Positions 3,063 through 43,700 of a DNA stretch of 64,000 nucleotides are shown here, piece after piece. The notes under the pieces are model-generated. The model made no database searches. It was not told the origin of the DNA and worked only from the letters and a program-made list of their open reading frames with translations. Numbering within the stretch: the stretch's first letter is position 1; every line of letters begins with the position of its first letter. The DNA comes from Escherichia coli. GTDB lineage: Bacteria; Pseudomonadota; Gammaproteobacteria; Enterobacterales; Enterobacteriaceae. The stretch lies in NCBI RefSeq assembly GCF_003334305.1, contig NZ_QOWS01000001.1, one strand, 5' to 3'. Made by a program: the position numbers and the translations under genes.

Positions 3063-3064
3063 AG

Positions 3065-6731: not shown

Positions 6732-7280
6732 ATGCAAGATTTAAGCGGTTTCTCGGTGCCGAAAGGGTTCCGGGGCGGCAACGCTATTAAAGTGCAATTA
6801 TGGTGGGCAGTACAGGCAACAATATTTGCCTGGTCGCCACAAGTATTGTATCGCTGGCGGGCTTTTTTATTACGTTTATTCGGCGCAAAAATAGGAAAAA
6901 ACGTAGTTATTCGTCCGTCAGTAAAAATTACCTATCCGTGGAAATTAACCTTAGGTGATTACGCGTGGGTCGGCGATGACGTCAATTTATATACCCTCGG
7001 TGAAATAACCATTGGCGCACATTCGGTGATATCGCAAAAAAGTTATTTATGCACCGGTAGCCACGACCATGCAAGTCAACATTTCACCATTAACGCCACG
7101 CCTATTGTGATTGGCGAGAAATGCTGGCTGGCAACCGATGTCTTTGTTGCCCCAGGCGTCACAATCGGCGACGGCACCGTCGTGGGTGCACGAAGCAGTG
7201 TTTTTAAATCGCTTCCGGCAAATGTGGTTTGCCGGGGGAATCCCGCAGTGGTGATACGCGAACGCGTTGAAACTGAATAA
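6732..7280 (+). CDS. wcaF: Colanic acid acetyltransferase WcaF (hexapeptide-repeat)
   Basis: 182 aa ORF with hexapeptide repeats; synteny. Confidence 0.9.
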   Translation: MQDLSGFSVPKGFRGGNAIKVQLWWAVQATIFAWSPQVLYRWRAFLLRLFGAKIGKNVVIRPSVKITYPWKLTLGDYAWVGDDVNLYTLGEITIGAHSVISQKSYLCTGSHDHASQHFTINATPIVIGEKCWLATDVFVAPGVTIGDGTVVGARSSVFKSLPANVVCRGNPAVVIRERVETE

Positions 7281-7305
7281 ATTCAAAAATACAGAGGAAT
7301 AAGAC

Positions 7306-8427
7306 ATGTCAAAAGTCGCTCTCATCACCGGTGTAACCGGACAAGACGGTTCTTACCTGGCAGAGTTTCTGCTGGAAAAAGGTTACGAGGTGCATGGTAT
7401 TAAGCGTCGCGCATCGTCATTCAACACCGAGCGCGTGGATCACATTTATCAGGATCCGCACACCTGCAACCCGAAATTCCATCTGCATTATGGCGACCTG
7501 AGTGATACCTCCAACCTGACGCGCATTTTGCGTGAAGTACAGCCGGATGAAGTGTACAACCTGGGCGCAATGAGCCACGTTGCGGTTTCTTTTGAGTCAC
7601 CGGAATATACCGCAGACGTCGATGCGATGGGTACGCTGCGCCTGCTCGAGGCGATCCGCTTCCTCGGTCTGGAAAAGAAAACCCGTTTCTATCAGGCTTC
7701 CACCTCTGAACTGTACGGTCTGGTGCAGGAAATTCCGCAGAAAGAAACCACGCCGTTCTACCCGCGATCTCCGTATGCGGTCGCCAAACTGTACGCCTAC
7801 TGGATCACCGTTAACTACCGCGAATCCTACGGCATGTACGCTTGTAACGGAATTCTCTTCAACCATGAATCCCCGCGCCGCGGCGAAACCTTCGTTACCC
7901 GCAAAATCACCCGCGCAATCGCCAACATCGCCCAGGGGCTGGAGTCGTGCCTGTACCTCGGCAATATGGATTCCCTGCGTGACTGGGGCCACGCCAAAGA
8001 CTACGTAAAAATGCAGTGGATGATGCTGCAACAGGAACAGCCGGAAGATTTCGTTATCGCGACCGGCGTTCAGTACTCCGTGCGTCAGTTCGTGGAAATG
8101 GCAGCGGCACAGCTGGGCATCAAACTGCGCTTTGAAGGCACGGGTGTTGAAGAGAAGGGCATTGTGGTTTCCGTCACCGGGCATGACGCGCCGGGCGTTA
8201 AACCGGGTGATGTGATTATCGCCGTTGATCCGCGTTACTTCCGTCCGGCTGAAGTTGAAACGCTGCTCGGCGACCCGACCAAAGCGCACGAAAAACTGGG
8301 CTGGAAACCGGAAATCACCCTCAGAGAGATGGTGTCTGAAATGGTGGCTAATGACCTCGAAGCGGCGAAAAAACACTCTCTGCTGAAATCTCACGGCTAC
8401 GACGTGGCGATCGCGCTGGAGTCATAA
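7306..8427 (+). CDS. gmd: GDP-mannose 4,6-dehydratase
   Basis: 373 aa ORF, N-terminal Rossmann GxxGxxG ([12 protein letters not shown]), SDR catalytic region. Confidence 0.95.
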
Positions 8428-8429
8428 GC

Positions 8430-9395
8430 ATGAGTAGACAACGCATTTTTATCGCTGGCCATCGCGGAATGGTCGGTTCTGCCATCAGGCGGCAGCTCGA
8501 ACAGCGCGGTGATGTGGAACTGGTATTACGCACCCGCGACGAGCTGAACCTGCTGGACAGCCGCGCGGTGCATGATTTCTTTGCCAGCGAACGCATTGAC
8601 CAGGTCTATCTGGCGGCGGCGAAAGTGGGCGGCATTGTTGCCAACAACACCTATCCGGCGGATTTCATCTACCAGAACATGATGATTGAGAGCAACATCA
8701 TTCACGCCGCGCATCAGAACGACGTGAACAAACTGCTGTTTCTCGGATCGTCCTGCATCTACCCGAAACTGGCAAAACAGCCGATGGCAGAAAGCGAGCT
8801 GTTGCAGGGCACGCTGGAGCCGACTAACGAGCCTTATGCCATTGCCAAAATCGCCGGGATCAAACTGTGCGAATCTTACAACCGCCAGTATGGACGCGAT
8901 TACCGCTCGGTCATGCCAACCAACCTGTACGGGCCACACGACAACTTCCATCCGAGTAACTCGCATGTGATCCCAGCATTGCTGCGTCGCTTCCACGAGG
9001 CGACGGCACAGAATGCACCGGACGTGGTGGTGTGGGGCAGCGGTACACCGATGCGTGAATTTCTGCACGTCGATGATATGGCGGCGGCAAGCATTCATGT
9101 GATGGAGCTGGCGCACGAAGTCTGGCTGGAAAACACCCAGCCGATGTTGTCGCACATTAACGTCGGTACGGGCGTTGACTGCACTATCCGCGAGCTGGCG
9201 CAAACCATCGCCAAAGTGGTGGGTTACAAAGGTCGGGTGGTTTTTGATGCCAGTAAACCGGATGGTACGCCGCGCAAACTGCTGGATGTGACGCGCCTGC
9301 ATCAGCTTGGCTGGTATCACGAAATCTCACTGGAAGCGGGGCTTGCCAGCACTTACCAGTGGTTCCTTGAGAATCAAGACCGCTTTCGGGGGTAA
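8430..9395 (+). CDS. fcl: GDP-L-fucose synthase (GDP-4-keto-6-deoxymannose 3,5-epimerase/4-reductase)
   Basis: 321 aa ORF, Rossmann motif GHRGMVGSA, synteny after gmd. Confidence 0.95.
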
Positions 9396-9397
9396 TG

Positions 9398-9877
9398 ATG
9401 TTTTTACGTCAGGAAGACTTTGCCACGGTAGTGCGCTCCACCCCGCTTGTCTCTCTCGACTTTATTGTCGAGAACAGTCGCGGCGAGTTTCTGCTTGGCA
9501 AAAGAACCAACCGCCCGGCGCAGGGTTACTGGTTTGTGCCGGGAGGGCGCGTGCAGAAAGACGAAACGCTGGAAGCCGCATTTGAGCGGCTGACGATGGC
9601 GGAACTGGGGCTGCGTCTGCCGATAACAGCAGGCCAGTTTTACGGTGTCTGGCAGCACTTTTATGACGATAACTTCTCCGGCATGGATTTCACCACTCAC
9701 TATGTGGTGCTCGGTTTTCGCTTCAGAGTATCGGAAGAAGAGCTGTTACTGCCGGATGAGCAGCATGACGATTACCGCTGGCTGACGCCGGATGCACTGC
9801 TCGCCAGTGACAATGTTCACGCTAACAGCCGCGCCTATTTTCTCGCTGAGAAGCGTGCCGGAGTACCCGGATTATGA
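9398..9877 (+). CDS. gmm: GDP-mannose mannosyl hydrolase (Nudix)
   Basis: 159 aa from second Met; Nudix-like region; synteny. Confidence 0.9.
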
Positions 9878-11097
9878 AAATACTGGTCTACGGCATTAAC
9901 TACTCGCCGGAGTTAACCGGCATCGGCAAATACACCGGCGAGATGGTGGAATGGCTGGCGGCACAAGGTCATGAGGTGCGGGTCATTACCGCACCGCCTT
10001 ACTACCCGCAGTGGCAGGTGGGTGAGAACTATTCCGCCTGGCGGTACAAACGAGAAGAGGGGGCCGCCACGGTGTGGCGCTGCCCGCTGTACGTGCCAAA
10101 ACAGCCGAGCACCCTGAAACGCCTGTTGCATCTCAGCAGTTTTGCCGTCAGCAGTTTCTTTCCTCTGATGGCGCAACGTCGCTGGAAGCCGGATCGCATT
10201 ATTGGCGTGGTGCCAACGCTGTTTTGCACGCCGGGAATGCGCCTGCTGGCGAAACTCTCTGGCGCGCGTACCGTGCTGCATATTCAGGATTACGAAGTGG
10301 ACGCCATGCTGGGGCTGGGCCTTGCCGGAAAAGGCAAAGGCGGCAAAGTGGCACAGCTGGCGACGGCGTTCGAACGTAGCGGACTGCATAACGTCGATAA
10401 CGTCTCCACGATTTCGCGTTCGATGATGAATAAAGCCATCGAAAAAGGCGTGGCGGCAGAAAACGTCATCTTCTTCCCCAACTGGTCAGAAATTGCCCGT
10501 TTTCAGCATGTTGCAGATGCCGATGTTGATGCCCTTCGTAACCAGCTTGGCCTGCCGGATAACAAAAAAATCATTCTTTACTCCGGCAATATTGGTGAAA
10601 AGCAGGGGCTGGAAAACGTTATTGAAGCTGCCGATCGCCTGCGCGATGAACCGCTGATTTTTGCCATTGTCGGGCAGGGCGGCGGCAAAGCGCGGCTGGA
10701 AAAAATGGCGCAGCAGCGTGGACTGCGCAACATGCAATTTTTTCCGCTGCAATCGTATGACGCTTTACCCGCACTGCTGAAGATGGGCGATTGCCATCTG
10801 GTGGTGCAAAAACGCGGCGCGGCAGATGCCGTATTGCCGTCGAAACTGACCAATATTCTGGCGGTAGGCGGTAACGCGGTGATTACTGCAGAAGCCCACA
10901 CAGAACTGGGACAGCTTTGCGAAACCTTTCCGGGCATTGCGGTTTGCGTAGAGCCGGAATCGGTCGAGGCGCTGGTGGCGGGGATCCGTCAGGCGCTCCT
11001 GCTGCCCAAACACAACACGGTGGCACGTGAATATGCCGAACGCACTCTCGATAAAGAGAACGTGTTACGTCAATTTATAAATGATATTCGGGGATAA
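9874..11097 (+). CDS. wcaI: Colanic acid glycosyltransferase WcaI (GT4)
   Basis: 407 aa ORF, GT4-type C-terminal domain, synteny. Confidence 0.9.
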
Positions 11098-11099
11098 TT

Positions 11100-12536
11100 A
11101 TGGCGCAGTCGAAACTCTATCCAGTTGTGATGGCAGGTGGCTCCGGTAGCCGCTTATGGCCGCTTTCCCGCGTACTTTACCCCAAGCAGTTTTTATGCCT
11201 GAAAGGCGATCTCACCATGCTGCAAACCACCATCTGCCGCCTGAACGGCGTGGAGTGCGAAAGCCCGGTGGTGATTTGCAATGAGCAGCACCGCTTTATT
11301 GTCGCGGAACAGCTGCGCCAACTGAACAAACTCACCGAGAACATTATTCTCGAACCGGCAGGGCGTAATACTGCACCTGCCATTGCGCTGGCGGCGCTGG
11401 CGGCAAAACGTCATAGCCCGGAGAGCGACCCGTTAATGCTGGTATTGGCGGCGGATCATGTGATTGCCGATGAAGACGCGTTCCGTGCCGCCGTGCGTAA
11501 TGCCATGCCATATGCCGAAGCGGGCAAGCTGGTGACCTTCGGCATTGTGCCGGATCTACCAGAAACCGGTTATGGCTATATTCGTCGCGGTGAAGTGTCT
11601 GCGGGTGAGCAGGATACGGTGGCCTTTGAAGTGGCGCAGTTTGTCGAAAAACCAAATCTGGAAACCGCGCAGGCCTATGTGGCAAGCGGCGAATATTACT
11701 GGAACAGCGGCATGTTCCTGTTCCGCGCCGGACGCTATCTCGAAGAACTGAAAAAATATCGCCCGGATATTCTCGATGCCTGCGAAAAAGCGATGAGCGC
11801 CGTCGATCCGGATCTCGATTTTATTCGCGTGGATGAAGAAGCGTTTCTCGCCTGCCCGGAAGAGTCGGTGGATTACGCGGTCATGGAACGTACGGCAGAT
11901 GCCGTTGTGGTACCGATGGATGCGGGCTGGAGCGATGTCGGTTCCTGGTCTTCATTATGGGAGATCAGCGCCCACACCGCCGAGGGCAACGTTTGCCACG
12001 GCGATGTAATTAATCACAAAACTGAAAACAGCTATGTGTACGCCGAATCTGGCCTGGTCACCACCGTCGGGGTGAAAGATCTGGTGGTGGTGCAGACCAA
12101 AGATGCGGTGCTGATTGCCGACCGTAACGCGGTGCAGGATGTGAAAAAAGTGGTCGAGCAGATCAAAGCCGATGGTCGCCATGAGCATCGGGTGCATCGC
12201 GAAGTCTATCGCCCGTGGGGCAAATATGACTCTATCGACGCAGGCGACCGCTACCAGGTGAAACGCATCACCGTGAAACCGGGCGAGGGCTTGTCGGTAC
12301 AGATGCACCATCACCGCGCGGAACACTGGGTGGTTGTCGCGGGAACGGCAAAAGTCACTATTGACGGTGATATCAAACTGCTTGGTGAAAACGAGTCCAT
12401 TTATATTCCGCTGGGGGCGACGCACTGCCTGGAAAACCCGGGGAAAATTCCGCTCGATTTAATTGAAGTGCGCTCCGGCTCTTATCTCGAAGAGGATGAT
12501 GTGGTGCGCTTCGCGGATCGCTACGGACGGGTGTAA
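11100..12536 (+). CDS. cpsB: Mannose-1-phosphate guanylyltransferase (colanic acid copy)
   Basis: 478 aa ORF, N-terminal [11 protein letters not shown] nucleotidyltransferase motif, C-terminal cupin domain. Confidence 0.95.
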
Positions 12537-12728: not shown

Positions 12729-14099
12729 ATGAAAAAATTAACCTGCTTTAAAGCCTATGATATTCGTGGAAAATTAGGCGAAGAACTGAATGAAGATATT
12801 GCCTGGCGCATTGGTCGTGCCTATGGCGAATTTCTCAAACCGAAAACCATTGTGTTAGGCGGTGATGTCCGTCTCACCAGCGAAACCTTAAAACTGGCGC
12901 TGGCAAAAGGTTTACAGGATGCGGGCGTTGATGTGCTGGATATCGGCATGTCCGGCACCGAAGAGATCTATTTCGCCACGTTCCATCTCGGCGTGGATGG
13001 CGGTATTGAAGTTACTGCCAGCCATAATCCGATGGATTACAACGGCATGAAACTGGTGCGCGAAGGGGCTCGCCCGATCAGCGGCGATACCGGACTGCGC
13101 GATGTCCAGCGTCTGGCAGAAGCCAACGACTTTCCTCCCGTTGATGCAACCAAACGCGGTCGCTATCAGCAAATCAATCTGCGTGACGCTTACGTTGATC
13201 ACCTGTTCGGTTATATCAACGTCAAAAACCTCACGCCGCTCAAGCTGGTGATCAACTCCGGGAACGGCGCAGCGGGTCCAGTAGTGGACGCCATTGAAGC
13301 CCGCTTTAAAGCCCTCGGCGCGCCCGTGGAATTGATCAAAGAGCACAACACGCCGGACGGTAATTTCCCCAACGGTATTCCTAACCCGCTACTGCCAGAA
13401 TGCCGCGACGACACCCGCAATGCGGTCATCAAACACGGCGCGGATATGGGCATTGCCTTTGACGGTGATTTTGATCGCTGCTTCCTGTTTGACGAAAAAG
13501 GGCAGTTTATTGAGGGCTACTACATTGTCGGCCTGCTGGCAGAAGCATTCCTCGAAAAAAATCCCGGCGCGAAGATCATCCACGATCCACGTCTCTCCTG
13601 GAACACTGTTGATGTGGTGACCGCCGCGGGCGGCACGCCGGTAATGTCGAAAACCGGACACGCCTTTATTAAAGAACGTATGCGCAAGGAAGACGCCATC
13701 TACGGTGGCGAAATGAGTGCCCACCATTACTTCCGTGATTTCGCTTACTGCGACAGCGGCATGATCCCGTGGCTGCTGGTAGCCGAACTGGTGTGCCTGA
13801 AAGGAAAAACGCTGGGCGAACTGGTGCGCGACCGGATGGCGGCATTCCCGGCAAGCGGTGAGATCAACAGCAAACTGGCGCAACCCGTTGAGGCGATTAA
13901 CCGCGTGGAACAGCATTTTAGCCGTGAGGCTCTGGCGGTGGATCGCACCGATGGCATCAGCATGACCTTTGCCGACTGGCGCTTTAATCTGCGCACCTCC
14001 AATACCGAACCGGTGGTGCGCCTGAATGTGGAATCGCGCGGTGATGTGCCACTGATGGAAGCGCGAACGCGAACTCTGCTGGCGTTGCTGAACGAGTAA
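12729..14099 (+). CDS. cpsG: Phosphomannomutase (colanic acid copy)
   Basis: 456 aa from Met [14 protein letters not shown]; active-site TASHNP motif; six-frame ORF extends 16 codons upstream into REP region. Confidence 0.95.
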
Positions 14100-32501: not shown

Positions 32502-33482
32502 ATGATGAGAGTAGAAAATAATAATGTTTCTGGGCAAAACCTTGACCCGGAACAGATTGATTTGATTGATTTACTGGTGCAACTATGGCGTGGCAAGATG
32601 ACAATCATCATTTCTGTCATTGTCGCTATTGTCCTGGCAATAGGATATCTGGTCGTTGCCAAAGAAAAATGGACTTCCACAGCTATCGTTACTCAACCTG
32701 ATGTGGGGCAAATCGCTGGTTATAACAATGCCATAAATGTGATTTATGGTTCAGCCGCGCCGAAAGTGTCTGAGATCCAGTCGATTTTAATTGGTCGCTT
32801 CAGCACGACATTTTCTGCATTAGCAGAAACGCTTGATAATCAGGAAGAACCTGAAAAACTGACTATTGAACCTACTGTAAAAAATCAGTCATTACCTTTA
32901 GCGGTGTCTTATGTTGGGCAATCGCCTGAAGCTGCGCAGAAACAGCTGGCTCAATATATCCAGCAAGTTGACGACCAGGTAAATGATGAACTTGAAAAAG
33001 ATCTGAAAGACAACATCGCGCTGCGTATGAAAAACTTACAGGATTCTCTGAAGACCCAGGAAGTGGTCGCTCAGGAGCAAAAAGAGCTGCGTATTCGTCA
33101 AATTCAGGAAGCGTTGCAGTATGCGAATCAGGCGCAGGTGACAAAGCCGCAGATTCAGCAGACACAGGACGTGACCCAGGATACCATGTTCCTTTTGGGG
33201 AGTGATGCACTGGAGTCGATGGTTAAGCACGAAGCGAGCCGTCCGTTGGTGTTCTCGTCAACCTACTATCAGACTCGTCAAAACCTGCTGGATATCGAAA
33301 GCTTAAAGGTTGATGATCTTGATATTCACGCTTACCGCTATGTGATGAAACCTACGTTACCCATTCGTCGTGATAGCCCGAAGAAGGCAATCACTTTGAT
33401 TCTGGCGGTGCTGCTGGGCGGCATGGTTGGCGCGGGTATTGTACTGGGGCGTAACGCGCTGCGTAATTACAACGCGAAGTGA
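32502..33482 (+). CDS. wzzB: O-antigen chain length determinant Wzz (polysaccharide co-polymerase 1)
   Basis: 326 aa ORF with N- and C-terminal TM helices and coiled-coil periplasmic domain; start could be the second Met at 32505. Confidence 0.9.
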   Translation: MMRVENNNVSGQNLDPEQIDLIDLLVQLWRGKMTIIISVIVAIVLAIGYLVVAKEKWTSTAIVTQPDVGQIAGYNNAINVIYGSAAPKVSEIQSILIGRFSTTFSALAETLDNQEEPEKLTIEPTVKNQSLPLAVSYVGQSPEAAQKQLAQYIQQVDDQVNDELEKDLKDNIALRMKNLQDSLKTQEVVAQEQKELRIRQIQEALQYANQAQVTKPQIQQTQDVTQDTMFLLGSDALESMVKHEASRPLVFSSTYYQTRQNLLDIESLKVDDLDIHAYRYVMKPTLPIRRDSPKKAITLILAVLLGGMVGAGIVLGRNALRNYNAK

Positions 33483-33500
33483 TTTTTGAGCTTAAAGAAA

Positions 33501-33536
33501 GCGGGCAGGGTGGTCACACCGTGCCCGTTTTTTTTG
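33501..33536 (+). terminator. Rho-independent terminator after wzz
   Basis: GCGGGCAGGGTG-gtca-CACCGTGCCCG hairpin (one mismatch) followed by T8. Confidence 0.75.
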
Positions 33537-33572
33537 TCGGATGCGATGCCGGCGTATCTTATCCAGCTTACA
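33536..33572. repeat. Single REP-like unit downstream of wzz
   Basis: GTCGGATGCGATGCCGGCGTATCTTATCCAGCTTACA closely resembles the REP unit at 2055-2092. Confidence 0.6.
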
Positions 33573-33675
33573 TATGTTGAGAAAATTTGTAGGCACGATA
33601 AACCTGCACACCGGGCAATGACGGATGAGTTGTTGCCGGAAGTGACAGCAACATCACATCCACCTACCCCGCAAC

Positions 33676-33783
33676 TCACTGATGCCGCGTGCGCAGAATC
33701 ACTATCACTGTTGTTAAATCCAGAATTTGAACCTGCAACAGCACCAGCAGGCGATACATCAAATCAGGCACCTCATTGGTTAG
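33676..33783 (-). pseudogene. hisI: Degenerate 3'-terminal fragment of hisI (last ~35 codons plus stop), displaced upstream of the his-linked polysaccharide cluster
   Basis: Minus-strand translation ...LTNEVPDLMYRLLVLLQVQILDLTTVIVILRTRHQ* parallels the HisI C-terminus; also ~85% nucleotide similarity to 46790-46860 inside intact hisI. Confidence 0.7.
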
Positions 33784-34365
33784 TATGTACCTTCGCAAAA
33801 CGGGATTACTCACAGCGAACATGGCGTAATTTTGTACAAATCTGTTTTTTTTATCAGCAGATTATTTAGCAACCAGGCAAAAAATGTCATGCCTTTCTTC
33901 ATTTTTACTTATATATCAATTGATTATAATTAATTGGTTTGGTAAATGTTTAAGATGTGTATTATTTGAGTAATCCATTAATTAGTCGGCTTTTATATTT
34001 TTTTTCCCAGCATGCAACGCTATAATCTGCGAAGATTTTTTTGTGGAATGTGCAGTGTAGAGGCATGAGTCGTTTATCCCACCAGTCGCAACATAACGCC
34101 GTCGTCGTGTGCAAAGAGCTGTCAAGCCCGAACGCGCGCTGCTTCTCTGGCGGCGAATACGATGTCTCTTCTTATCTTTCCTCGTATCGTAAATGCTCCT
34201 TTCTGATGGTTGCTGGCATCGGTAAATCACTTGATTCGTTTTTTTTGATGGCGGTGAGAGCATGTGTTTTGCCCCGCGTAAATGAGAAGGTCCTGATGGT
34301 TACTCTGGCGGCAAATGTGGAAATTGTGGGGCGTTTCGTGGCCTGGTGAGGAACAGATACATATT

Positions 34366-34403
34366 AAAAGCAGAGATATGCCCTGAGACATATCTCTGCT
34401 TTT
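34366..34403. terminator. Strong hairpin (13-bp stem) flanked by A-run and T-run; candidate bidirectional terminator / sRNA 3' end
   Basis: AAAAGCAGAGATATG-ccctgaga-CATATCTCTGCTTTT read directly. Confidence 0.55.
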
Positions 34404-34533
34404 AGGTTTTCAGGATGCCCGTTCCGTAAGGATGGTTTTTGAGACCGCTGAGTGAAGGGGCTGCCGACAGTCTGAAGCGAAAGAGGGTGGCGTTTAGCCT
34501 GGAGCACTACGCATTTTGGTTGCGATAGCCAAT

Positions 34534-34545
34534 GGCGGTAGCGTA
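34534..34545 (+). promoter_or_regulatory. ops element (GGCGGTAGCGTA) upstream of manC of the his-linked cluster
   Basis: Exact GGCGGTAG core 89 nt upstream of manC start; JUMPstart-like flanks. Confidence 0.8.
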
Positions 34546-34622
34546 CCTGAAAAAGGCCATTCAACCCGTTGGTCGATTGATTGATAGTAAAATAAAACAA
34601 TTATTTATTTAAGGATTTCATT

Positions 34623-36038
34623 ATGTTACTTCCTGTAATTATGGCTGGTGGTACCGGCAGTCGTCTCTGGCCGATGTCACGCGAGCTTTATCCGAAACAG
34701 TTCCTCCGCCTGTTCGGGCAGAACTCCATGCTGCAGGAAACCATCACCCGACTCTCGGGTCTTGAAATCCATGAACCGATGGTCATCTGTAACGAAGAGC
34801 ATCGCTTCCTGGTGGCTGAACAGCTGCGCCAGCTAAATAAGCTGTCGAATAACATTATACTTGAGCCAGTCGGGCGCAACACCGCGCCGGCCATCGCCCT
34901 GGCGGCCCTTCAGGCCACCCGCTACGGTGACGACCCGCTGATGCTGGTTCTCGCCGCCGACCACATCATCAATAACCAGTCGGCCTTCCACGACGCTATC
35001 CGGGTCGCCGAGCAGTATGCTGATGAAGGTCATCTGGTCACCTTCGGTATCGTGCCGAATGCCCCGGAAACTGGCTACGGTTACATTCAGCGCGGCGTGG
35101 CGCTCACCGATAGTGCCCATTCCGCGTACCAGGTGGCCCGCTTTGTGGAGAAGCCGGATCGCGAGCGCGCCGAGGCTTACCTCGCCTCCGGGGAGTACTA
35201 CTGGAACAGCGGCATGTTTATGTTCCGCGCCAAGAAATACCTCATCGAGCTGGCCAAATACCGTCCGGATATCCTGGAAGCCTGCCAGGCTGCGGTGAAT
35301 GCCGCCGATAATGGCAGCGATTTCATCAATATCCCACATGATATTTTCTGCGAGTGCCCGGATGAGTCCGTGGACTACGCCGTTATGGAGAAAACCGCTG
35401 ATGCGGTGGTGGTCGGTCTCGATGCTGACTGGAGCGACGTTGGCTCCTGGTCCGCACTATGGGAGGTCAGCCCGAAAGACGAGCAGGGCAACGTCCTTAG
35501 TGGCGACGCGTGGGTACACAACAGCGAAAACTGCTACATCAACAGCGACGAGAAGCTAGTGGCGGCCATTGGCGTAGAGAATCTGGTGATTGTCAGCACT
35601 AAGGACGCCGTGCTGGTGATGAATCGCGAGCGTTCCCAGGACGTGAAGAAGGCGGTCGAGTTCCTCAAGCAGAACCAGCGCAGCGAGTACAAGCGCCACC
35701 GTGAGATTTACCGCCCCTGGGGCCGTTGCGACGTAGTGGTCCAGACCCCGCGCTTCAACGTCAACCGCATCACGGTGAAACCAGGCGGTGCCTTCTCGAT
35801 GCAGATGCACCACCATCGCGCCGAGCATTGGGTTATTCTCGCCGGCACCGGTCAGGTGACGGTCAACGGTAAGCAGTTCCTGCTGTCCGAGAACCAGTCC
35901 ACCTTTATTCCGATTGGCGCCGAGCACTGCCTGGAAAACCCTGGCTGTATTCCGCTGGAAGTGCTGGAGATCCAGTCGGGGGCGTACCTTGGCGAGGACG
36001 ACATTATTCGTATTAAAGACCAGTATGGTCGTTGCTAA
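34623..36038 (+). CDS. manC: Mannose-1-phosphate guanylyltransferase (O-antigen copy)
   Basis: 471 aa; [11 protein letters not shown] motif; GC-rich relative to flanking genes; paralogue of cpsB. Confidence 0.9.
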
Positions 36039-36061
36039 TTATTTTCGGGACAAGATGCAGA

Positions 36062-37438
36062 ATGACACAGTTAACTTGTTTTAAGGCTTATGACATCCGT
36101 GGTGAACTGGGTGAGGAACTGAACGAGGACATCGCCTACCGTATCGGTCGCGCCTACGGCGAATTTCTGAAACCCGGGAAGATAGTGGTGGGGGGCGATG
36201 TGCGCCTCACAAGCGAGTCGCTGAAGCTGGCGCTGGCCCGCGGGTTAATGGACGCCGGTACCGACGTGCTGGACATCGGCCTGAGCGGTACCGAAGAGAT
36301 TTACTTTGCCACCTTCCACCTTGGGGTAGATGGTGGCATCGAGGTGACCGCGAGCCACAATCCTATGAACTACAACGGCATGAAGCTGGTGCGCGAGAAT
36401 GCGAAGCCCATCAGCGGCGACACCGGCCTGCGGGATATCCAGCGCCTGGCGGAGGAAAACCAGTTCCCGCCAGTGGACCCGGCGCGTCGCGGGACCCTGA
36501 GCAAGATATCGGTACTGAAGGAGTATGTTGACCATCTGATGAGCTACGTGGACTTCTCGAACTTCACCCGTCCACTGAAGTTGGTGGTGAACTCCGGAAA
36601 CGGGGCTGCGGGGCACGTGATTGATGAGGTGGAGAAACGCTTCGCGGCGGCTGGGGTGCCGGTAACCTTTATCAAGGTGCATCACCAGCCGGATGGCCAT
36701 TTCCCTAACGGTATCCCGAATCCGCTGCTGCCGGAGTGCCGCCAGGATACCGCCGACGCGGTGCGCGAGCATCAGGCAGACATGGGGATTGCCTTTGACG
36801 GCGACTTCGATCGCTGCTTCCTGTTCGATGACGAAGCTTCGTTTATCGAGGGGTATTACATTGTCGGCCTGCTGGCTGAGGCGTTCCTGCAGAAGCAGCC
36901 GGGAGCGAAAATCATTCACGACCCGCGCTTGACGTGGAACACGGTAGACATCGTGACCCGCAACGGCGGCCAGCCGGTGATGTCGAAGACGGGGCATGCG
37001 TTCATCAAGGAGCGGATGCGTCAGGAAGACGCTATCTACGGCGGGGAGATGAGTGCGCACCATTACTTCCGCGATTTCGCCTACTGCGATAGCGGGATGA
37101 TCCCGTGGCTGCTGGTGGCGGAGCTGCTGTGTCTGAAGAACAGCTCGCTGAAATCGCTGGTGGCGGACCGCCAGAGGGCGTTCCCTGCGTCGGGAGAGAT
37201 CAACCGCAAGCTAAGGAATGCGGCTGAGGCGATCGCCCGCATCCGGGCGCAGTATGAGCCGGCGGCTGCACACATCGACACAACGGACGGGATCAGTATT
37301 GAATACCCTGAATGGCGCTTTAACCTGCGCACGTCTAACACCGAGCCGGTGGTGCGTCTGAACGTTGAGTCCAGAGCTGATGTGGCGCTTATGAATGAAA
37401 AAACGACCGAGCTGTTACACCTGTTAAGCGGGGAATAA
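36062..37438 (+). CDS. manB: Phosphomannomutase (O-antigen copy)
   Basis: 458 aa from [14 protein letters not shown]; TASHNP active-site motif; paralogue of cpsG. Confidence 0.9.
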
Positions 37439-37439
37439 G

Positions 37440-38234
37440 GTGAGAGATTTACTAACGACGATTTATCGTTATCGGGGATTTATCTGGAGCAGTGTTAAAC
37501 GTGATTTTCAGGCGCGCTATCAAACTAGTATGCTGGGCGCACTATGGCTCGTTTTACAACCGCTCTCTATGATTCTGGTCTATACCCTGGTTTTTTCCGA
37601 GGTGATGAAGGCAAGAATGCCCGATAATACCGGGTCGTTTGCCTATAGTATTTATCTCTGTTCCGGGGTACTGACCTGGGGATTATTTACTGAGATGCTG
37701 GATAAAGGTCAGAGCGTATTTATTAACAATGCTAATCTGATCAAGAAACTCAGTTTTCCGAAAATCTGTCTGCCGATCATCGTGACGTTATCGGCGGTGC
37801 TAAATTTCGCGATTATTTTCAGTCTGTTTCTAATTTTTATCATTGTCACCGGTAACTTCCCCGGCTGGCTCTTTCTCTCGGTGATACCGGTCCTGCTTTT
37901 GCAAATCCTGTTTGCCGGTGGGCTGGGGATGATCCTTGGTGTCATGAACGTCTTTTTCAGGGATGTGGGGCAACTGGTTGGCGTTGCGCTGCAATTCTGG
38001 TTTTGGTTCACACCCATTGTTTATGTACTGAATTCATTACCTGCATGGGCAAAAAATCTGATGATGTATAACCCGATGACTCGGATCATGCAATCTTATC
38101 AGTCCATCTTCGCCTATCATCTGGCCCCCAACTGGTATTCGCTATGGCCAGTATTGGCTCTCGCCATTATTTTCTGTGTCATCGGTTTCAGGATGTTCCG
38201 CAAGCATGCGGCGGATATGGTGGATGAATTATAA
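37440..38234 (+). CDS. wzm: O-polysaccharide ABC transporter permease Wzm
   Basis: 264 aa, ABC-2 type permease with about 6 TM helices; GTG start. Confidence 0.85.
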   Translation: MRDLLTTIYRYRGFIWSSVKRDFQARYQTSMLGALWLVLQPLSMILVYTLVFSEVMKARMPDNTGSFAYSIYLCSGVLTWGLFTEMLDKGQSVFINNANLIKKLSFPKICLPIIVTLSAVLNFAIIFSLFLIFIIVTGNFPGWLFLSVIPVLLLQILFAGGLGMILGVMNVFFRDVGQLVGVALQFWFWFTPIVYVLNSLPAWAKNLMMYNPMTRIMQSYQSIFAYHLAPNWYSLWPVLALAIIFCVIGFRMFRKHAADMVDEL

Positions 38235-39448
38235 TGAGTTATATCAGAGTAAATAATGTCGGTAAGGCGTATCGCCAGTATCACTCAAAGACCGGGAGAC
38301 TGATCGAATGGTTATCCCCTCTGAATACCAAACGCCATAACTTGAAATGGATCCTCCGCGAGATTAATTTCGAAGTCGCTCCGGGCGAGGCTGTCGGTAT
38401 TATCGGTATCAACGGTGCAGGCAAGAGTACCCTGCTTAAACTCATAACCGGGACGTCCAGGCCGACGACTGGAGAAATTGAAATCTCCGGACGTGTCGCT
38501 GCATTACTCGAATTGGGGATGGGGTTTCATTCTGATTTCACTGGCCGGCAGAATGTTTATATGTCTGGGCAACTGTTGGGGTTATCGTCAGAGAAAATAA
38601 CTGAACTGATGCCGCAAATTGAAGAGTTTGCTGAGATTGGGGACTATATCGATCAGCCTGTGCGCGTCTACTCCAGTGGGATGCAAGTTCGATTAGCTTT
38701 TAGTGTAGCGACGGCTATCCGTCCTGATGTGCTAATTATCGATGAGGCATTATCTGTTGGGGATGCATATTTCCAGCATAAAAGCTTTGAGCGTATTCGA
38801 AAATTTCGTCAGGAAGGGACCACGCTGTTGCTGGTATCCCATGATAAACAAGCGATCCAAAGCATTTGCGACCGGGCCATTTTATTGAATAAAGGCCAAA
38901 TTGAAATGGAAGGTGAACCTGAAGCAGTGATGGATTATTACAATGCGCTTCTGGCCGATAAACAAAATCAGTCCATTAAACAAGTTGAGCATAATGGTAA
39001 AACGCAAACTGTTTCAGGCACTGGTGAGGTGACTATCTCTGAGGTTCATCTTCTCGATGAACAGGGCAATGTGACTGAATTTGTTTCGGTAGGGCATCGT
39101 GTCAGCTTGCAGGTCAACGTTGAGGTCAAGGACGATATTCCTGAGCTTGTTGTCGGATATATGATTAAGGATCGACTTGGACAGCCGATTTTCGGGACCA
39201 ATACGTACCATCTCAATCAGACACTCACCTCCCTGAAAAAAGGAGAAAAGCGTTCGTTCTTATTTTCTTTCGATGCGAGATTGGGGGTTGGCTCCTATTC
39301 TGTCGCTGTCGCGTTGCATACTTCCAGTACGCACCTCGGCAAAAACTATGAATGGCGCGATCTGGCCGTGGTATTCAACGTCGTTAACACGGAACAACAA
39401 GAGTTTGTCGGCGTGTCCTGGTTGCCGCCTGAACTGGAGATTTCTTAA
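38234..39448 (+). CDS. wzt: O-polysaccharide ABC transporter ATP-binding protein Wzt with C-terminal extension (putative carbohydrate-binding domain)
   Basis: 404 aa; Walker A GINGAGKST, signature YSSGMQVRLAF, Walker B LIIDEA; about 150 aa C-terminal extra domain. Confidence 0.85.
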   Translation: MSYIRVNNVGKAYRQYHSKTGRLIEWLSPLNTKRHNLKWILREINFEVAPGEAVGIIGINGAGKSTLLKLITGTSRPTTGEIEISGRVAALLELGMGFHSDFTGRQNVYMSGQLLGLSSEKITELMPQIEEFAEIGDYIDQPVRVYSSGMQVRLAFSVATAIRPDVLIIDEALSVGDAYFQHKSFERIRKFRQEGTTLLLVSHDKQAIQSICDRAILLNKGQIEMEGEPEAVMDYYNALLADKQNQSIKQVEHNGKTQTVSGTGEVTISEVHLLDEQGNVTEFVSVGHRVSLQVNVEVKDDIPELVVGYMIKDRLGQPIFGTNTYHLNQTLTSLKKGEKRSFLFSFDARLGVGSYSVAVALHTSSTHLGKNYEWRDLAVVFNVVNTEQQEFVGVSWLPPELEIS

Positions 39449-40725
39449 TGGGTTCGTCGTTTTATCGTTCATTTGAAGAACGACACAGAGGTTCGGTTGA
39501 AGAAATCAAGCGCCGCTTGAGTTTTTATTTACCTTTTCTTGCAGGTCTGAAGGACATTTATCCTGATGGCGTGATTGCGGATATTGGTTGCGGACGTGGC
39601 GAATGGTTGGAGATCCTGACTGAAAATGGCATTGCGAACATCGGCGTCGATCTCGATGATGGCATGCTGGCGCGCGCCAGGGAGGCCGGACTGAATGTGC
39701 AGAAAATGGATTGTCTGCAGTTTCTGCAAAGTCAGGCGGATCAGAGCCTGATAGCGTTGACCGGTTTTCATATTGCTGAGCATTTGCCTTTTGAGGTCCT
39801 GCAGCAGCTCGTCATGCATACCCTACGGGTGCTGAAACCAGGTGGTTTGCTGATCCTCGAAACGCCGAACCCGGAGAATGTAAACGTCGGCACCTGTTCA
39901 TTTTATATGGATCCAACGCATAATCATCCTCTGCCACCGCCACTGCTTGAGTTTTTACCTATTCATTATGGTTTTAACAGAGCAATTACCGTTCGTCTGC
40001 AGGAAAAAGAGGTTCTTCAATCTCCGGATGCAGCCGTTAATTTGGTCGATGTACTCAAAGGGGTGAGCCCCGACTACAGCATCATTGCTCAGAAAGCAGC
40101 GCCAACAGATATTCTTGAACGCTTTGACACCCTGTTTACCCAGCAGTATGGTCTGACGCTGGATGCTCTGAGCAACCGTTACGATGCGATTTTGCGCCAA
40201 CAGTTTTCGTCCGTTGTCTCACGGCTGGAGACGTTGAACCAAACCTATATGCAACAGATAAGCCAAATGTCAGAGACTATTCAGACTTTGCAAGGTGAGG
40301 TTGACGATCTGAGTCATGTCATCGATCAGAACCATCAGCTTCATCAGCAAATGGCGGATTTACATAACAGTCGTTCATGGCGTATTACTCAACCACTACG
40401 CTGGTTGTCTTTGCAACGTCAATTATTACGTCAGGAAGGGGCTAAAGTGCGAGCCCGTAGGGCTGCGAAAAAAATATTGCGCAAAGGGATGGCGCTCTCG
40501 CTGGTCTTTTTCCATCGTTACCCTAAGTCTAAGGTTTATCTGTTTAAGGTTCTGAGAAAAACTGGCTGCTATACATTGCTACAACGTTTGTTCCAACGCG
40601 TAATGCTGGTGCAATCTGACACGATGATGATGCAGTCCAGAAGATATGATGTGGGTACTGAAGAAATGACAAGTCGCGCGATGAGTATTTATAACGAATT
40701 AAAAAATAAAAATACGGAGAAATAA
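39448..40725 (+). CDS. wbdD: Chain-terminating SAM-dependent methyltransferase WbdD (methyltransferase-only, O8 / Klebsiella O5 type) with C-terminal coiled coil
   Basis: 425 aa; SAM-binding motif DIGCGRGEW; no kinase domain; coiled-coil and basic amphipathic C-terminus. Confidence 0.7.
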   Translation: MGSSFYRSFEERHRGSVEEIKRRLSFYLPFLAGLKDIYPDGVIADIGCGRGEWLEILTENGIANIGVDLDDGMLARAREAGLNVQKMDCLQFLQSQADQSLIALTGFHIAEHLPFEVLQQLVMHTLRVLKPGGLLILETPNPENVNVGTCSFYMDPTHNHPLPPPLLEFLPIHYGFNRAITVRLQEKEVLQSPDAAVNLVDVLKGVSPDYSIIAQKAAPTDILERFDTLFTQQYGLTLDALSNRYDAILRQQFSSVVSRLETLNQTYMQQISQMSETIQTLQGEVDDLSHVIDQNHQLHQQMADLHNSRSWRITQPLRWLSLQRQLLRQEGAKVRARRAAKKILRKGMALSLVFFHRYPKSKVYLFKVLRKTGCYTLLQRLFQRVMLVQSDTMMMQSRRYDVGTEEMTSRAMSIYNELKNKNTEK

Positions 40726-40727
40726 CG

Positions 40728-43700
40728 ATGCGTATTGTCATAGATTTACAAGGCGCACAGACGGAAAGCCGCTTTCGTGGCATCGGTCGTTATAGTATCG
40801 CAATCGCCAGAGGCATAATCAGAAATAACAGCCGGCATGAGATTTTCATCGCGCTATCCGCCATGCTGGATGAGTCGATTGCGGATATTAAGGCGCAATT
40901 TGCCGATCTCCTGCCGGCAGAAAATATAGTCGTATGGCATGCCGTAGGCCCTGTTCGTGCGATGGACCAAGGTAATGAATGGCGTCGGGAGAGCGCAGAA
41001 CTGATTCGGGAAGCGTTTCTTGAATCATTGTGTCCAGATGTCGTTTTCATTACGAGCTTGTTTGAAGGTCATGTCGACGATGCGGCTACATCGGTACACA
41101 AATTTAGTCGTCAGTATAAAGTAGCCGTACTGCACCACGATCTTATCCCCCTCGTGCAGGCGGAAACCTATCTGCAGGACGATGTATACAAACCCTACTA
41201 CTTACAGAAAGTTGAGTGGTTAAAAAACGCTGACCTTTTGTTGACTAACTCTGCTTATACCGCACAGGAAGCGATCGAGCATCTGCATTTACAGGGCGAT
41301 CATGTGCAGAATATTGCAGCCGCAGTCGATTCTCAGTTTTGTATGGCGGAGGTGACAGCGAGCGAAAAAGAGACCGTCCTTGGCCATTACGGTATTCAGC
41401 GCGAGTTCATGTTGTATGCGCCCGGAGGATTTGACTCAAGGAAAAACTTTAAACGGTTGATTGAGGCCTATGCCGGGCTCAGTGATGCCTTACGTCGCAG
41501 TCATCAACTGGTTATCGTCAGTAAGCTTTCCATCGGTGATCGTCAGTATCTGGAATCCCTTGCGTCAGGTAATGGTTTACAGCAAGGCGAACTGGTACTC
41601 ACTGGTTATGTGCCGGAAGATGAGCTGATCCAGCTCTATCGCCTATGTAAGCTGTTCATCTTTGCTTCACTACATGAAGGTTTTGGGTTGCCGGTTCTGG
41701 AAGCAATGTCGTGCGGTGCGCCGGTGATTGGCTCAAATGTCACCAGTATTCCTGAAGTCATCGGTAATCCTGAGGCATTATTCGACCCGTATTCTGTCTC
41801 TTCCATGAGGGATAAGATCGCGCAATGTTTGACTGATGATACCTTCCTCGCGCGTCTGAAAGAAATGGCGCAGCAGCAAGCGCGTAATTTCTCTTGGGAT
41901 AAAGCTGCGGTGACTGCTCTGGAGGCTTTCGAAAAGATCGCGGTAGAAGACACCGGTACTGCGCAGGTTTTGCCTGAAGCTTTGATTCAGAAGATCCTTG
42001 CTATCACACAAGGGCAGCCAGATGACCGCGATCTGCGCTTGTGCGCAACGGCCATTGATTACAATCTGAAAACGGCAGAACTTTATCAAATCGACGATAA
42101 ATCGCTGAACTGGCGTGTGGAAGGCCCATTCGATAGCTCATATAGTCTGGCGTTGGTCAACCGCGAATTTGCCCGGGCACTCTCAGCCGATGGTGTAGAG
42201 GTCTTATTGCATTCCACTGAAGGACCGGGTGATTTTGCCCCAGATGCCTCCTTTATGGCACAGTCGGAAAATAGTGATCTTCTGGCATTTTATAATCAAT
42301 GTCAGACCCGCAAGAGTAACGAAAAGATAGATATTCTTAGCAGAAATATCTATCCACCGCGGGTTACCAAAATGGATGCCAAAGTAAAATTCCTTCATTG
42401 TTATGCTTGGGAAGAAACGGGCTTTCCGCAACCGTGGATCAATGAATTTAATCGGGAACTTGACGGAGTGCTGTGTACTTCGGAACATGTTCGTAAAATA
42501 TTGATTGATAACGGACTGAATGTGCCCGCATTTGTTGTTGGCAATGGCTGTGACCATTGGCTCAATATCCCAGCCGAGACGACAAAAGATGTGGATCACG
42601 GAACATTCCGTTTCCTGCACGTCTCTTCTTGTTTCCCACGCAAAGGGATACAGGCAATGCTTCAGGCTTGGGGGAAGGCGTTCACTCGTCGTGACAATGT
42701 TATCTTAATCATTAAGACTTTTAACAATCCGCACAATGAAATTGACGCATGGCTGGCTCAGGCCCAGGCTCAATTCATAGACTATCCCAAAGTTGAAGTG
42801 ATCAAAGAGGATATATCAGCCACCGAGCTTAAAGGGCTTTATGAAAGCTGTGATGTTTTGGTTGCTCCAGGTTGCGCTGAAGGCTTTGGTTTACCTATTG
42901 CTGAAGCAATGCTGAGTGGGCTACCGGCTATCGTCACCAATTGGAGCGGGCAACTTGATTTTGTTAATTCACAAAATTCATGGCTGGTTGACTATCAGTT
43001 CACTCGGGTAAAAACGCACTTTGGTCTGTTTTCCTCAGCCTGGGCCAGTGTGGATATTGACAACTTAACAGATGCATTAAAAGCGGCAGCCTCAACCGAT
43101 AAATCAGTGCTGCGTGACATGGCCAATGCTGGTCGCGAGCTTCTTCTGCAGCAGTTTACCTGGAAAGCGGTGGCTGATCGTTCTTGCCAGGCGGTCAAGA
43201 CTCTGCGTGCGCATATTGATATTGCACAGCATCGGGCGCGCATTGGCTGGTTGACGACCTGGAACACGAAATGTGGGATCGCAACCTATTCCCAGCATCT
43301 GGTGGAAAGCGCACCTCATGGCGCGGATGTTGTTTTTGCTCCCCAGGTCAGCGCTGGCGATCTTGTGTGTGCAGACGAAGAGTTTGTACTTCGCAACTGG
43401 ATTGTAGGTAAAGAGAGCAACTATCTGGAAAACCTCCAGCCACACATTGATGCTCTGAAACTCGATGTCATTGTGATCCAATTCAACTATGGATTCTTTA
43501 ATCATCGAGAACTGTCGGTGTTTATTCGTCGCCAGCATGACGCCGGTCGTTCAGTTGTTATGACGATGCACTCAACTGTGGATCCGCTGGAAAAAGAGCC
43601 GAGCTGGAATTTCCGTCTTGCTGAAATGAAAGAGGCGCTGGCACTTTGCGACCGGTTGTTGGTGCATTCGATTGCCGATATGAACCGCCTTAAAGATTTA

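Follow-up and report, generated by a model that had tools for sequence, protein, structure and literature searches.

A GC-rich manC-manB pair as the predicted GDP-mannose supply module of a Klebsiella-type O8 O-antigen cluster in Escherichia coli

The manC-manB (manCB) pair that heads the his-linked polysaccharide cluster in a 64,000-nucleotide stretch of Escherichia coli DNA (hereafter, the window) is, on the evidence of its sequence, the GDP-mannose supply module of a Klebsiella-derived E. coli O8 polymannan O-antigen cluster. We consider it highly probable that the cluster is a Klebsiella-type O8 unit with a high-GC manCB module of its own, the colanic-acid genes cpsB-cpsG (cpsBG) representing a distinct lineage. 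The finding is real but already known: his-linked O8/O9 clusters, their link to Klebsiella, and the conservation of manCB and wbdBC at the two ends belong to textbook O-antigen genetics.

The O8 cluster, its base composition and its leader

The genes manC (34623–36038, plus strand; 471 amino acids) and manB, or rfbK (36062–37438, plus strand; 458 amino acids), were assigned from the RefSeq annotation of A7, a near-identical strain, in combination with open reading frames and from the RefSeq name 'O9 family phosphomannomutase RfbK', respectively; the TTG at 36032, where the manB open reading frame starts, differs from the annotated manB start. ManC passes TIGR01479 with 741 bits against a cut-off of 373, residues 2–470 of 471 being matched, and fails the CpsB equivalog NF012004 (726 bits, below 859), whereas CpsB passes both of these NCBIfam models. 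ManB passes NF011943 (853 bits, cut-off 801; residues 1–456 of 458 matched). Together, ManC, as a type II PMI/GMP, and ManB, as a phosphomannomutase, would make up the GDP-mannose pathway from Man-6-P through Man-1-P to GDP-Man. The next six genes, wzm, wzt, wbdD, wbdA, wbdB and wbdC (37440–46703, plus strand), are assigned to the export, termination and polymerisation of an O8-type polymannan, Wzm and Wzt bearing 'O8 family' names in RefSeq. O8 is marked by three glycosyltransferase modules in WbdA, by a WbdD limited to a methyltransferase and by Wzm/Wzt of the O8 type (PMC7685785). The window encodes a WbdA of 1213 and a WbdD of 425 amino acids; in their equally long Klebsiella pneumoniae homologues (93% and 92% amino acid identity), the Pfam matches are repeated GT1/GT4 modules for WbdA and exclusively methyltransferase families for WbdD, so that, in gene content, the window cluster has the serotype-defining WbdA, WbdD and Wzm/Wzt of O8. 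It is 100% identical to many E. coli genomes of the O8 type and is present in 276 of 5,426 complete genomes. The colanic-acid cluster is retained in this strain, which in addition has a rare O46/O134-like wzx/wzy cluster between galF and gnd (17 of 5,426 genomes).

The first-pass annotation described manC and manB as more GC-rich than wzm-wbdC and far more so than the galF-gnd cluster, and calculation bears this out. The GC content of manCB is 0.585 (GC3 0.741), compared to 0.483 (GC3 0.509) for wzm-wbdC, a difference with z = 9.4 for GC and 12.5 for GC3, and 0.297 (GC3 0.247) for the galF-gnd cluster. Taken singly, manC and manB lie at 0.58–0.59 (manB, GC 0.59 and GC3 0.75) and the wzm-wbdC genes at 0.45–0.51. 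A three-segment likelihood fit, which answers the windowed GC check that had been proposed, shows a non-uniform cluster whose composition changes at 34645 and 37390, practically at the start of manC and the end of manB. The cpsBG pair has a GC content of 0.552 (GC3 0.620), and colanic-acid genes are nearly as GC-rich as manCB (GC3 of 0.72 for wzxC and 0.68 for fcl); manCB stands out compositionally inside its own operon, not across the window.

Upstream of manC lies a non-coding leader (33823–34622, plus strand) that is common to Klebsiella, where it occupies the uge-manC intergenic region, and to E. coli O9 (81–83% in BLAST). It contains a 94-amino-acid open reading frame (34065–34349), for which a profile search returned no family match, and a perfect hairpin (34365–34404). 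At 79 nt before manC, a pattern search located an ops element (GGCGGTAGCGT; 34534–34544, plus strand), belonging to a leader of the JUMPStart type. The pattern GGCGGTAG has only two sites in the 64 kb, and the other one, at 23685, heads the galF-gnd cluster. The ops element is predicted to act as a loading site for RfaH, and the O8 operon, having its own ops/JUMPStart leader, is therefore probably RfaH-dependent; a sigma-70 scan of the leader detected no plus-strand promoter above the shuffled expectation. The colanic-acid operon is controlled by Rcs, and the second pair would supply GDP-mannose for the O-antigen without reliance on that operon.

History of the manCB module and transfer of the cluster

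E. coli O8 and O9 are about 96% identical over manCB and about 64% identical from position ~37400, that is, from the manB/wzm boundary, so that the GC step coincides with the break in O8/O9 similarity. ManC/ManB and WbdB/WbdC have been described as conserved, and WbdD/WbdA as variable (PMC5529442), and in modular O-antigen clusters segments of differing GC content are taken to have differing histories (PMC3715488). In the O8-type clusters of Serratia proteamaculans and Rouxiella badensis, the GC content of manCB is 0.46–0.48, not above that of the core, and identity to the window is only 69–70% for ManC and 76–82% for Wzm. Genes of the manCB family are found in 655 of the 5,426 E. coli genomes, at 93–100% identity and in O8, O9 and capsule-locus contexts; a contig search with ManB gave, as the best among the matches listed, 81–82% amino acid identity, to Yersinia and Citrobacter, with Klebsiella absent from those listed. 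Within one K. pneumoniae genome, the O-locus and capsule-locus copies of manCB are 99.7%/98.2% identical, which suggests, on the basis of that one genome, that in this species the O-locus manCB is kept near-identical to the capsule copy by concerted evolution. With a phylogenetic argument that rests on a small taxon sample, these comparisons support a history of manCB that differs from that of the wzm-wbdA core.

Exchange within the manCB family can be seen in a plasmid-borne O8 cassette. This cassette is a recombinant: it is of the O9-plasmid type at 102 of 102 informative sites up to window position 35600 and of the E. coli O8 type at 149 of 153 informative sites from 35699, which places one crossover in manC (35600–35699), and another maps to wbdB (44570–45208). 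Because this cassette is recombinant with a crossover in manC, manC serves as a recombination arm with other copies of the manCB family, not with cpsBG. The true recombination partners are the manCB-family copies at 93–99% identity in other polymannan clusters, in Klebsiella-type capsule loci and on plasmid cassettes, and the identity of the partner is relevant to serotype prediction and to strain engineering. Tentatively, and with rather less than even confidence, we suggest that a portable polymannan cassette has manC and wbdB as its homology arms, such that plasmids could carry the O8/O9 serotype between genera. The cassette would circulate, in some cases next to blaKPC-2, on IncF and conjugative IncX5 plasmids in Enterobacter, Serratia, Klebsiella, Cronobacter and E. 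coli, and chromosomal E. coli O8 DNA would have recombined into a plasmid frame. A shallow literature search found no relevant published description of plasmid-borne O8/O9 cassettes.

The GC step could instead reflect a gene-intrinsic constraint, whereby sugar-nucleotide enzymes, being conserved and well expressed, drift to the GC content of the host and glycosyltransferase and transporter genes stay AT-rich, no different origin being required. In E. coli O-antigen clusters, nucleotide-sugar genes are indeed generally higher in GC than glycosyltransferase and processing genes (PMC7685785), and the mosaic is also present in K. pneumoniae O5 and, more weakly, in K. huaxiensis. However, such a constraint does not fit S. 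proteamaculans and R. badensis, in which manCB is no more GC-rich than the core, nor the coincidence of the GC step with the abrupt fall from 96% to 64% identity, the crossover mapped inside manC, or the lower conservation of ManC (69%) than of Wzm (82%) between the window and Serratia; we regard this explanation as unlikely. On the preferred reading, manCB is GC-rich because the evolutionary history of the module differs from that of the low-GC transporter and glycosyltransferase core. Within the branch of the cluster found in Klebsiella and E. coli, manCB belongs to a high-GC family that also supplies Klebsiella capsule loci, and it is exchanged among polymannan clusters as a conserved 5' arm, with wbdB-wbdC as the conserved 3' arm and a serotype-specific centre between them.

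The first-pass annotation concluded from composition that manCB and wzm-wbdC differ in origin. The part of this claim that stands is the separate history of the module, as the O8/O9 break indicates; an assembly of the mosaic in E. coli does not. Against K. pneumoniae O5, the nucleotide identity is 93.3% for manC, 93.2% for manB, 93.0% for wzm, 91.1% for wzt, 90.7% for wbdD, 89.8% for wbdA and 92.4% for both wbdB and wbdC, compared to 82.4% for hisIE (46742–47350, minus strand; RefSeq annotation), the resident gene that borders the import on its right-hand side. Gene order and sizes match in K. pneumoniae (L085) and come close in K. huaxiensis (L087); the order by itself is unchanged in both species and in Serratia and Rouxiella. 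That manCB was acquired by E. coli apart from wzm-wbdC is suggested by the compositional step alone and is very improbable against the uniform 90–93% identity over all eight genes, a mosaic already in place in K. pneumoniae and the shared gene order. The uniform identity from manC to wbdC and the same mosaic in K. pneumoniae imply that the whole unit was transferred together; the mosaic thus appears to predate E. coli, the cluster having apparently arrived as one unit. A GC step within an operon can, then, predate the transfer into the current host.

The edges of the block are those of a horizontally acquired island. On the left, BLAST alignments with K. pneumoniae (L085/L086) and with E. coli HS begin at 33823, at 81–83% identity; on the right, identity to K. 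pneumoniae falls from ~92% to ~80% at about 46750. Beside wzzB lies a degenerate remnant of the hisI 3' end (33676–33783, minus strand), whose translation, ...LTNEVPDLMYRLLVLLQVQILDL...RTRHQ-stop, matches the ...KNRH-stop of the HisIE C-terminus and which includes 41 nt that share 92.7% identity with the genuine hisIE (46790–46830); we read it as the scar of the insertion of a foreign cluster between wzz and hisI. The block from ~33823 to ~46750 is an insertion of Klebsiella type, flanked by wzzB and hisIE, that passed from genus to genus in one piece and left the hisI remnant beside wzz. The O8/O9 clusters sit between gnd and hisI, like those of Klebsiella, and reflect lateral transfer (PMC7685785). 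From GC content, the position of the locus and the literature, we infer that transfer proceeded from Klebsiella to E. coli. The GC3 of manCB is 0.73–0.75 in E. coli compared to 0.83 in K. pneumoniae; the immediate donor may have been another Klebsiella-like species, or the genes may since have drifted towards E. coli composition.

Relationship to the colanic-acid pair cpsB-cpsG

The colanic-acid genes cpsB (11100–12536, plus strand), for a mannose-1-phosphate guanylyltransferase, and cpsG (12729–14099, plus strand), for a phosphomannomutase, are, by the RefSeq annotation of strain A7, distant paralogues of manC and manB. The two pairs had been noted as paralogous, in direct orientation and about 22 kb apart, which agrees with protein identities of 62.4% (ManC/CpsB) and 75.7% (ManB/CpsG), with 23.5 kb from the start of cpsB to that of manC and with 20.5 kb separating the pairs.

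From this arrangement, it was further proposed that the pairs are direct repeats and substrates for RecA-dependent deletion of the intervening 20 kb. Direct orientation, homologous proteins and three exact runs of 20 nt speak for this proposal, but these runs are also the longest between the pairs, and nucleotide identity is 62–64.5% for cpsB/manC and 69–70.6% for cpsG/manB, with only 36–42% at third codon positions. Bacterial minimal efficient processing segments (MEPS) have been put at 'at most 30' identical bp (PMC8918686) and at 25–90 bp, gene flow dropping sharply at 2–10% divergence (PMC9650840), and recombination declines exponentially with sequence divergence (PMC8918686, PMC9650840). 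With a longest run of 20 nt and a divergence of 29–38%, the pairs fall short of RecA-competent direct repeats, and nucleotide identity is as low as the first-pass annotation itself had held incompatible with homologous recombination; in most genomes, megablast with manCB as the query does not detect cpsBG. Among the 5,426 complete E. coli genomes, none joins fcl-wcaI to the O8 wzm-wbdD within 3.5 kb, in a screen that covered the predicted O8-type junction only, and within that scope the suggested search for hybrid cpsB/manC junctions came back empty. Partial manCB matches in E. coli VE-F5 and P50 were inspected as potential hybrids, and both are IS1 truncations. A cpsG/manB patch of 84–89% identity (alignment positions ~946–1080, permutation p < 0.002) was considered as a conversion tract, but Klebsiella and all other manB copies match in the same way, and it is therefore a conserved protein region; no gene-conversion patch specific to the window was found between cpsBG and manCB. 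Nor could a deletion have removed both antigen clusters, as claimed: wzm-wbdC lie distal to manB, outside the interval, and would stay. We assign this proposal only a very small probability; a second GDP-mannose pair is not a deletion hotspot when the copies have diverged by 30–38%.

That manCB arose in E. coli by recent duplication of cpsBG and then diverged, as the identical two-gene order, the same enzyme functions and the similarly high GC content might suggest, is least credible of all, given that four-fold degenerate sites differ at 57–62%, near saturation, that CpsB and CpsG are 87–91% and 84–90% identical to orthologues from Enterobacter, Phytobacter, Pseudocitrobacter and Pseudescherichia that are themselves only ~61% identical to ManC and 74–77% to ManB, and that manCB is 93% identical to Klebsiella at the nucleotide level against 82% for the flanking hisIE. 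Because these orthologues share the conserved colanic-acid context wcaI-cpsB-cpsG-wcaJ across genera, cpsBG is a separate, ancient colanic-acid lineage, whose enzymes would be redundant with ManC and ManB in function and which is no longer a recombination partner of manCB.

Comparison with known polysaccharide gene clusters

The colanic-acid pair resembles manCB in its two enzymatic steps, gene order, GC-richness and strand, and differs in sequence (62%/76% protein and 62–71% nucleotide identity), with ManC below the cut-off of the CpsB equivalog. Duplicated rfbM/rfbK genes were reportedly described in O9:K30 by Jayaratne et al. The E. coli O8 and Klebsiella O5 clusters match the window in gene order, in the sizes of WbdA (1213 amino acids) and WbdD (425 amino acids) and in the adjoining hisIE, with no material difference, and exactly such a his-linked locus and its lateral transfer have been reviewed (PMC7685785). 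The manC-manB of Klebsiella capsule loci (gnd-manC-manB-ugd) belongs to the same high-GC family, at 92–93% nucleotide identity to the window, but occupies the 3' end of a Wzy-dependent capsule locus, where ugd rather than wzm comes next; the family also occurs in E. coli with Klebsiella-type capsule loci, such as MIN12. In the Salmonella Gal-initiated set described by the Reeves model, the conserved sugar-pathway modules at the ends undergo concerted evolution and serve as sites of recombination around a serotype-specific centre, with GC content varying between segments (PMC3715488). Likewise, manCB and wbdBC in the window flank an O8- or O9-specific centre; the window cluster differs in encoding an ABC-transporter-dependent homopolymer and in having manCB above, not below, the GC content of the genome.

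The O8-type locus and the composition of manCB

The sequence represents the his-linked polysaccharide locus from an O8-type E. coli. Several complete genomes, among them A7, DETEC-E601 and H15, match window positions 33400-47000 at 100% identity and IAI1 matches them at 99.8%; of the 5,426 complete E. coli genomes compared, 276 contain at least 80% of this interval. Following the RefSeq annotation of strain A7, from which gene order and names were taken, the plus strand carries the colanic-acid genes (including fcl, gmm, wcaI, cpsB at 11100-12536, cpsG at 12729-14099, and wcaJ to wcaM), gne and galF, an O46/O134-like wzx/wzy cluster (23707-29419), gnd, ugd and wzzB (ending at 33482) and, after a 1.1-kb spacer, manC (34623-36038), manB/rfbK (36062-37438), wzm, wzt, wbdD (a 425-aa methyltransferase), wbdA (a 1213-aa glycosyltransferase), wbdB and wbdC (ending at 46703), with hisIE (46742-47350) convergent to the O8 cluster. 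The manC-wbdC genes are arranged like an operon, with gaps or overlaps of 1-60 nt. Both GDP-mannose pairs, manCB and the colanic-acid paralogues cpsBG, are intact, with full-length matches to their pathway families; ManC scores above the TIGR01479 cut-off and below the CpsB-specific equivalog cut-off.

Three surface-polysaccharide loci (an intact colanic-acid locus, the O46/O134-like cluster and O8) therefore stand in succession. The O46/O134-like cluster, sited between galF and gnd, has a GC content of 0.28-0.32 and its own ops element at 23685, and occurs in just 17 of the 5,426 genomes. The one base by which the window differs from A7 across 45 kb lies here, in a run of five G residues (four in A7) at 26866-26870, near the 5' end of wzy (26759-27898); the window copy is open as a 379-aa ORF and that of A7 is frameshifted according to PGAP, a difference that could reflect slippage or sequencing error.

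The elevated GC content of manCB noted in the first-pass annotation is borne out by block composition: GC and GC3 are 0.585 and 0.741 in manCB, 0.483 and 0.509 in wzm-wbdC, 0.297 and 0.247 in the galF-gnd cluster and 0.552 and 0.620 in cpsBG. The gap between manCB and wzm-wbdC corresponds to z = 9.4 for GC and 12.5 for GC3, although manCB is only marginally above the colanic-acid genes (wzxC GC3 0.72). A maximum-likelihood three-segment fit over 33500-40000 placed change points at 34645 and 37390, the start of manC and the end of manB, and a 200-nt GC profile steps at the same place.

An ops element, GGCGGTAGCGT, one of two in the window, lies 79 nt 5' of manC, and no plus-strand promoter stood out in a sigma-70 scan of the leader. 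The portion of the leader shared with Klebsiella also contains a 94-aa hypothetical ORF (34065-34349) with no NCBIfam match and a perfect 40-nt hairpin (34365-34404). On the basis of pathway knowledge, with roles as in PMC7685785, ManB and ManC would supply GDP-mannose for polymerisation by WbdC, WbdB and WbdA on undecaprenyl-PP-GlcNAc, WbdD would cap the chain and Wzm/Wzt would export it; a dedicated, RfaH-dependent manCB would make O-antigen synthesis independent of the colanic-acid operon, which is induced by stress.

Separate history of manCB and transfer as a unit

Comparison with E. coli HS (O9) gave 88-99% identity (mean about 96%) in every 150-nt bin over manC-manB, falling to 64% from the bin that holds the manB/wzm junction; similarity to HS was not detectable in the wzt C-terminus, wbdD and wbdA, and from wbdB onward, his genes included, identity was back at 94.7%. 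The GC step is therefore the site of a phylogenetic discontinuity, and on this alignment manCB and wbdBC are common arms flanking a serotype-specific centre. Serratia proteamaculans and Rouxiella badensis have the same eight-gene architecture, with ManC merely 69-70% and Wzm 76-82% identical to those of the window, and their manCB GC content (0.46-0.48) is not above that of their cores; thus, only the Klebsiella/E. coli form of the module has high GC, which is not a built-in property of these genes. Of the 5,426 genomes, 655 carry manCB-family genes with 93-100% identity, placed in O8, O9 and Klebsiella-type capsule loci.

The mosaic had been taken to indicate a different origin of manCB. These data uphold a separate history for the pair, but they do not mean that E. 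coli acquired it separately. An O5-type locus of K. pneumoniae, found via Wzm homologues and exact-protein look-ups, shows nearly constant nucleotide identity to the O8 cluster (manC 93.3%, manB 93.2%, wzm 93.0%, wzt 91.1%, wbdD 90.7%, wbdA 89.8%, wbdB 92.4%, wbdC 92.4%; flanking hisIE, 82.4%) and the same mosaic (GC 0.62-0.63 in manCB, 0.46-0.50 in wzm-wbdA), and the entire cluster therefore crossed genera as one unit with the mosaic already formed. The stretch homologous to Klebsiella runs from 33823, within the uge-manC intergenic leader, to about 46750. Immediately 3' of wzzB, on the minus strand (33676-33783), a degenerate relic encodes the last ~35 residues of HisI, whereas intact hisIE lies about 13 kb away; the relic resembles a scar left where the Klebsiella-type block inserted at a former wzz-hisI junction.

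cpsBG and manCB as direct repeats

The two pairs are paralogous and on the same strand, as first described, with protein identities of 62.4% (ManC/CpsB) and 75.7% (ManB/CpsG) and starts 23.5 kb apart. The further proposal that they are substrates for deletion by homologous recombination found no support: cpsBG and manCB are not recombination substrates for each other. Nucleotide identity is 64.5% for cpsB/manC and 70.6% for cpsG/manB by BLASTN, and 61.9% and 69.1% in a codon-based alignment (third positions merely 36.5% and 42.5%); 57-62% of four-fold degenerate sites differ, and the longest exact shared runs are three of 20 nt. Bacterial minimal efficient processing segments have been put at "at most 30" identical bp, with recombination declining exponentially with divergence (PMC8918686), or at 25-90 bp, with gene flow strongly lowered at 2-10% divergence (PMC9650840); divergence here is 29-38%. 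A chimeric query joining 3 kb of fcl-gmm-wcaI to 3 kb of O8 wzm-wzt-wbdD, halves that merge into one place only after a cpsBG/manCB deletion, found joined flanks in none of the 5,426 E. coli genomes, and O8 genomes among its best matches had the halves at separate places. The predicted deletion would in any case remove wcaJ-wcaM, gne, galF, the O46/O134-like cluster, gnd, ugd and wzz, and not both antigen clusters as had been supposed, wzm-wbdC lying outside the interval.

Truncated manCB matches were considered as deletion products, and both of those examined proved to be IS1-mediated. A local patch of raised cpsG/manB identity, considered as gene conversion, is common to Klebsiella manB and all other manB copies examined, and is therefore explained by constraint on the protein, not by conversion in this genome. 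Enterobacter, Phytobacter, Pseudocitrobacter and Pseudescherichia have cpsBG orthologues in the conserved gene order wcaI-cpsB-cpsG-wcaJ; their proteins are 84-91% identical to E. coli CpsB/CpsG, about 61% to ManC and 74-77% to ManB; the two lineages therefore predate these genera.

Recombination at manC and comparison with known systems

Complete O8- or O9-type manC-wbdC cassettes are borne on plasmids, including IncFIA/FII and conjugative IncX5 replicons, in Enterobacter, Serratia, Klebsiella, Cronobacter, Apirhabdus and E. coli (loci L089, L092, L093 and L094; NZ_CP104682.1, NZ_CP091082.1, NZ_MF062700.1). The O8 cassette (window 34405-46678, 98.2% identity) is found in Enterobacter roggenkampii, E. 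kobei, Serratia marcescens and E. coli, in one case adjoining Tn4401-blaKPC-2, and an O9-type cassette with the same ends occurs on about ten plasmids besides a conjugative IncX5 one. The plasmid cassettes start at 34405, directly after the leader hairpin. In the plasmid O8 cassette, the 102 informative sites as far as window 35600 are without exception of the O9-plasmid type, 149 of 153 from 35699 on are of the chromosomal E. coli O8 type, and the reverse switch falls inside wbdB (44570-45208). Judged by these sites, it is a clean recombinant that combines E. coli O8 DNA with an O9-type plasmid frame; the crossovers lie in manC (35600-35699) and wbdB. Since a crossover maps within it, manC is a demonstrated homologous-recombination arm, its partners being copies 93-99% identical.

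Rearrangement at the ugd/manC border of O9-type loci is IS1-driven. Copies of IS1 recur there in VE-F5 (L002), P50 (L003), HS (L083) and MIN12 (O89m, L084); manB is truncated in VE-F5, manC through wbdA is deleted in P50, and in MIN12 a sole wbdC remnant adjoins a Klebsiella-type capsule locus.

Much of this locus has been described. [quoted passage not shown] The manCB finding is therefore a correct observation of a described feature; of the inferences first drawn from it, the separate history is sound and the deletion unsupported. The plasmid-borne recombinant cassette, outside that original finding, may be the sole under-described element.

In the K. pneumoniae genome used above (GCA_051090505.1, locus L085) manC-manB pairs at 16-2824 and 7185-9999 lie in direct orientation 7.2 kb apart, the capsule-locus copy upstream of the O-locus copy, and are 99.7%/98.2% identical, which, for this one genome, suggests that manCB owes its high GC to concerted evolution with the host-adapted copy in the capsule locus. 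Unlike cpsBG and manCB in E. coli, these repeats are a true pair capable of gene conversion or deletion. A Serratia proteamaculans locus (L090) also has two direct manCB pairs near an O8-type cluster (2633-5440 and 7198-9998), and these, just 60% and 69% identical to each other, resemble the E. coli arrangement.
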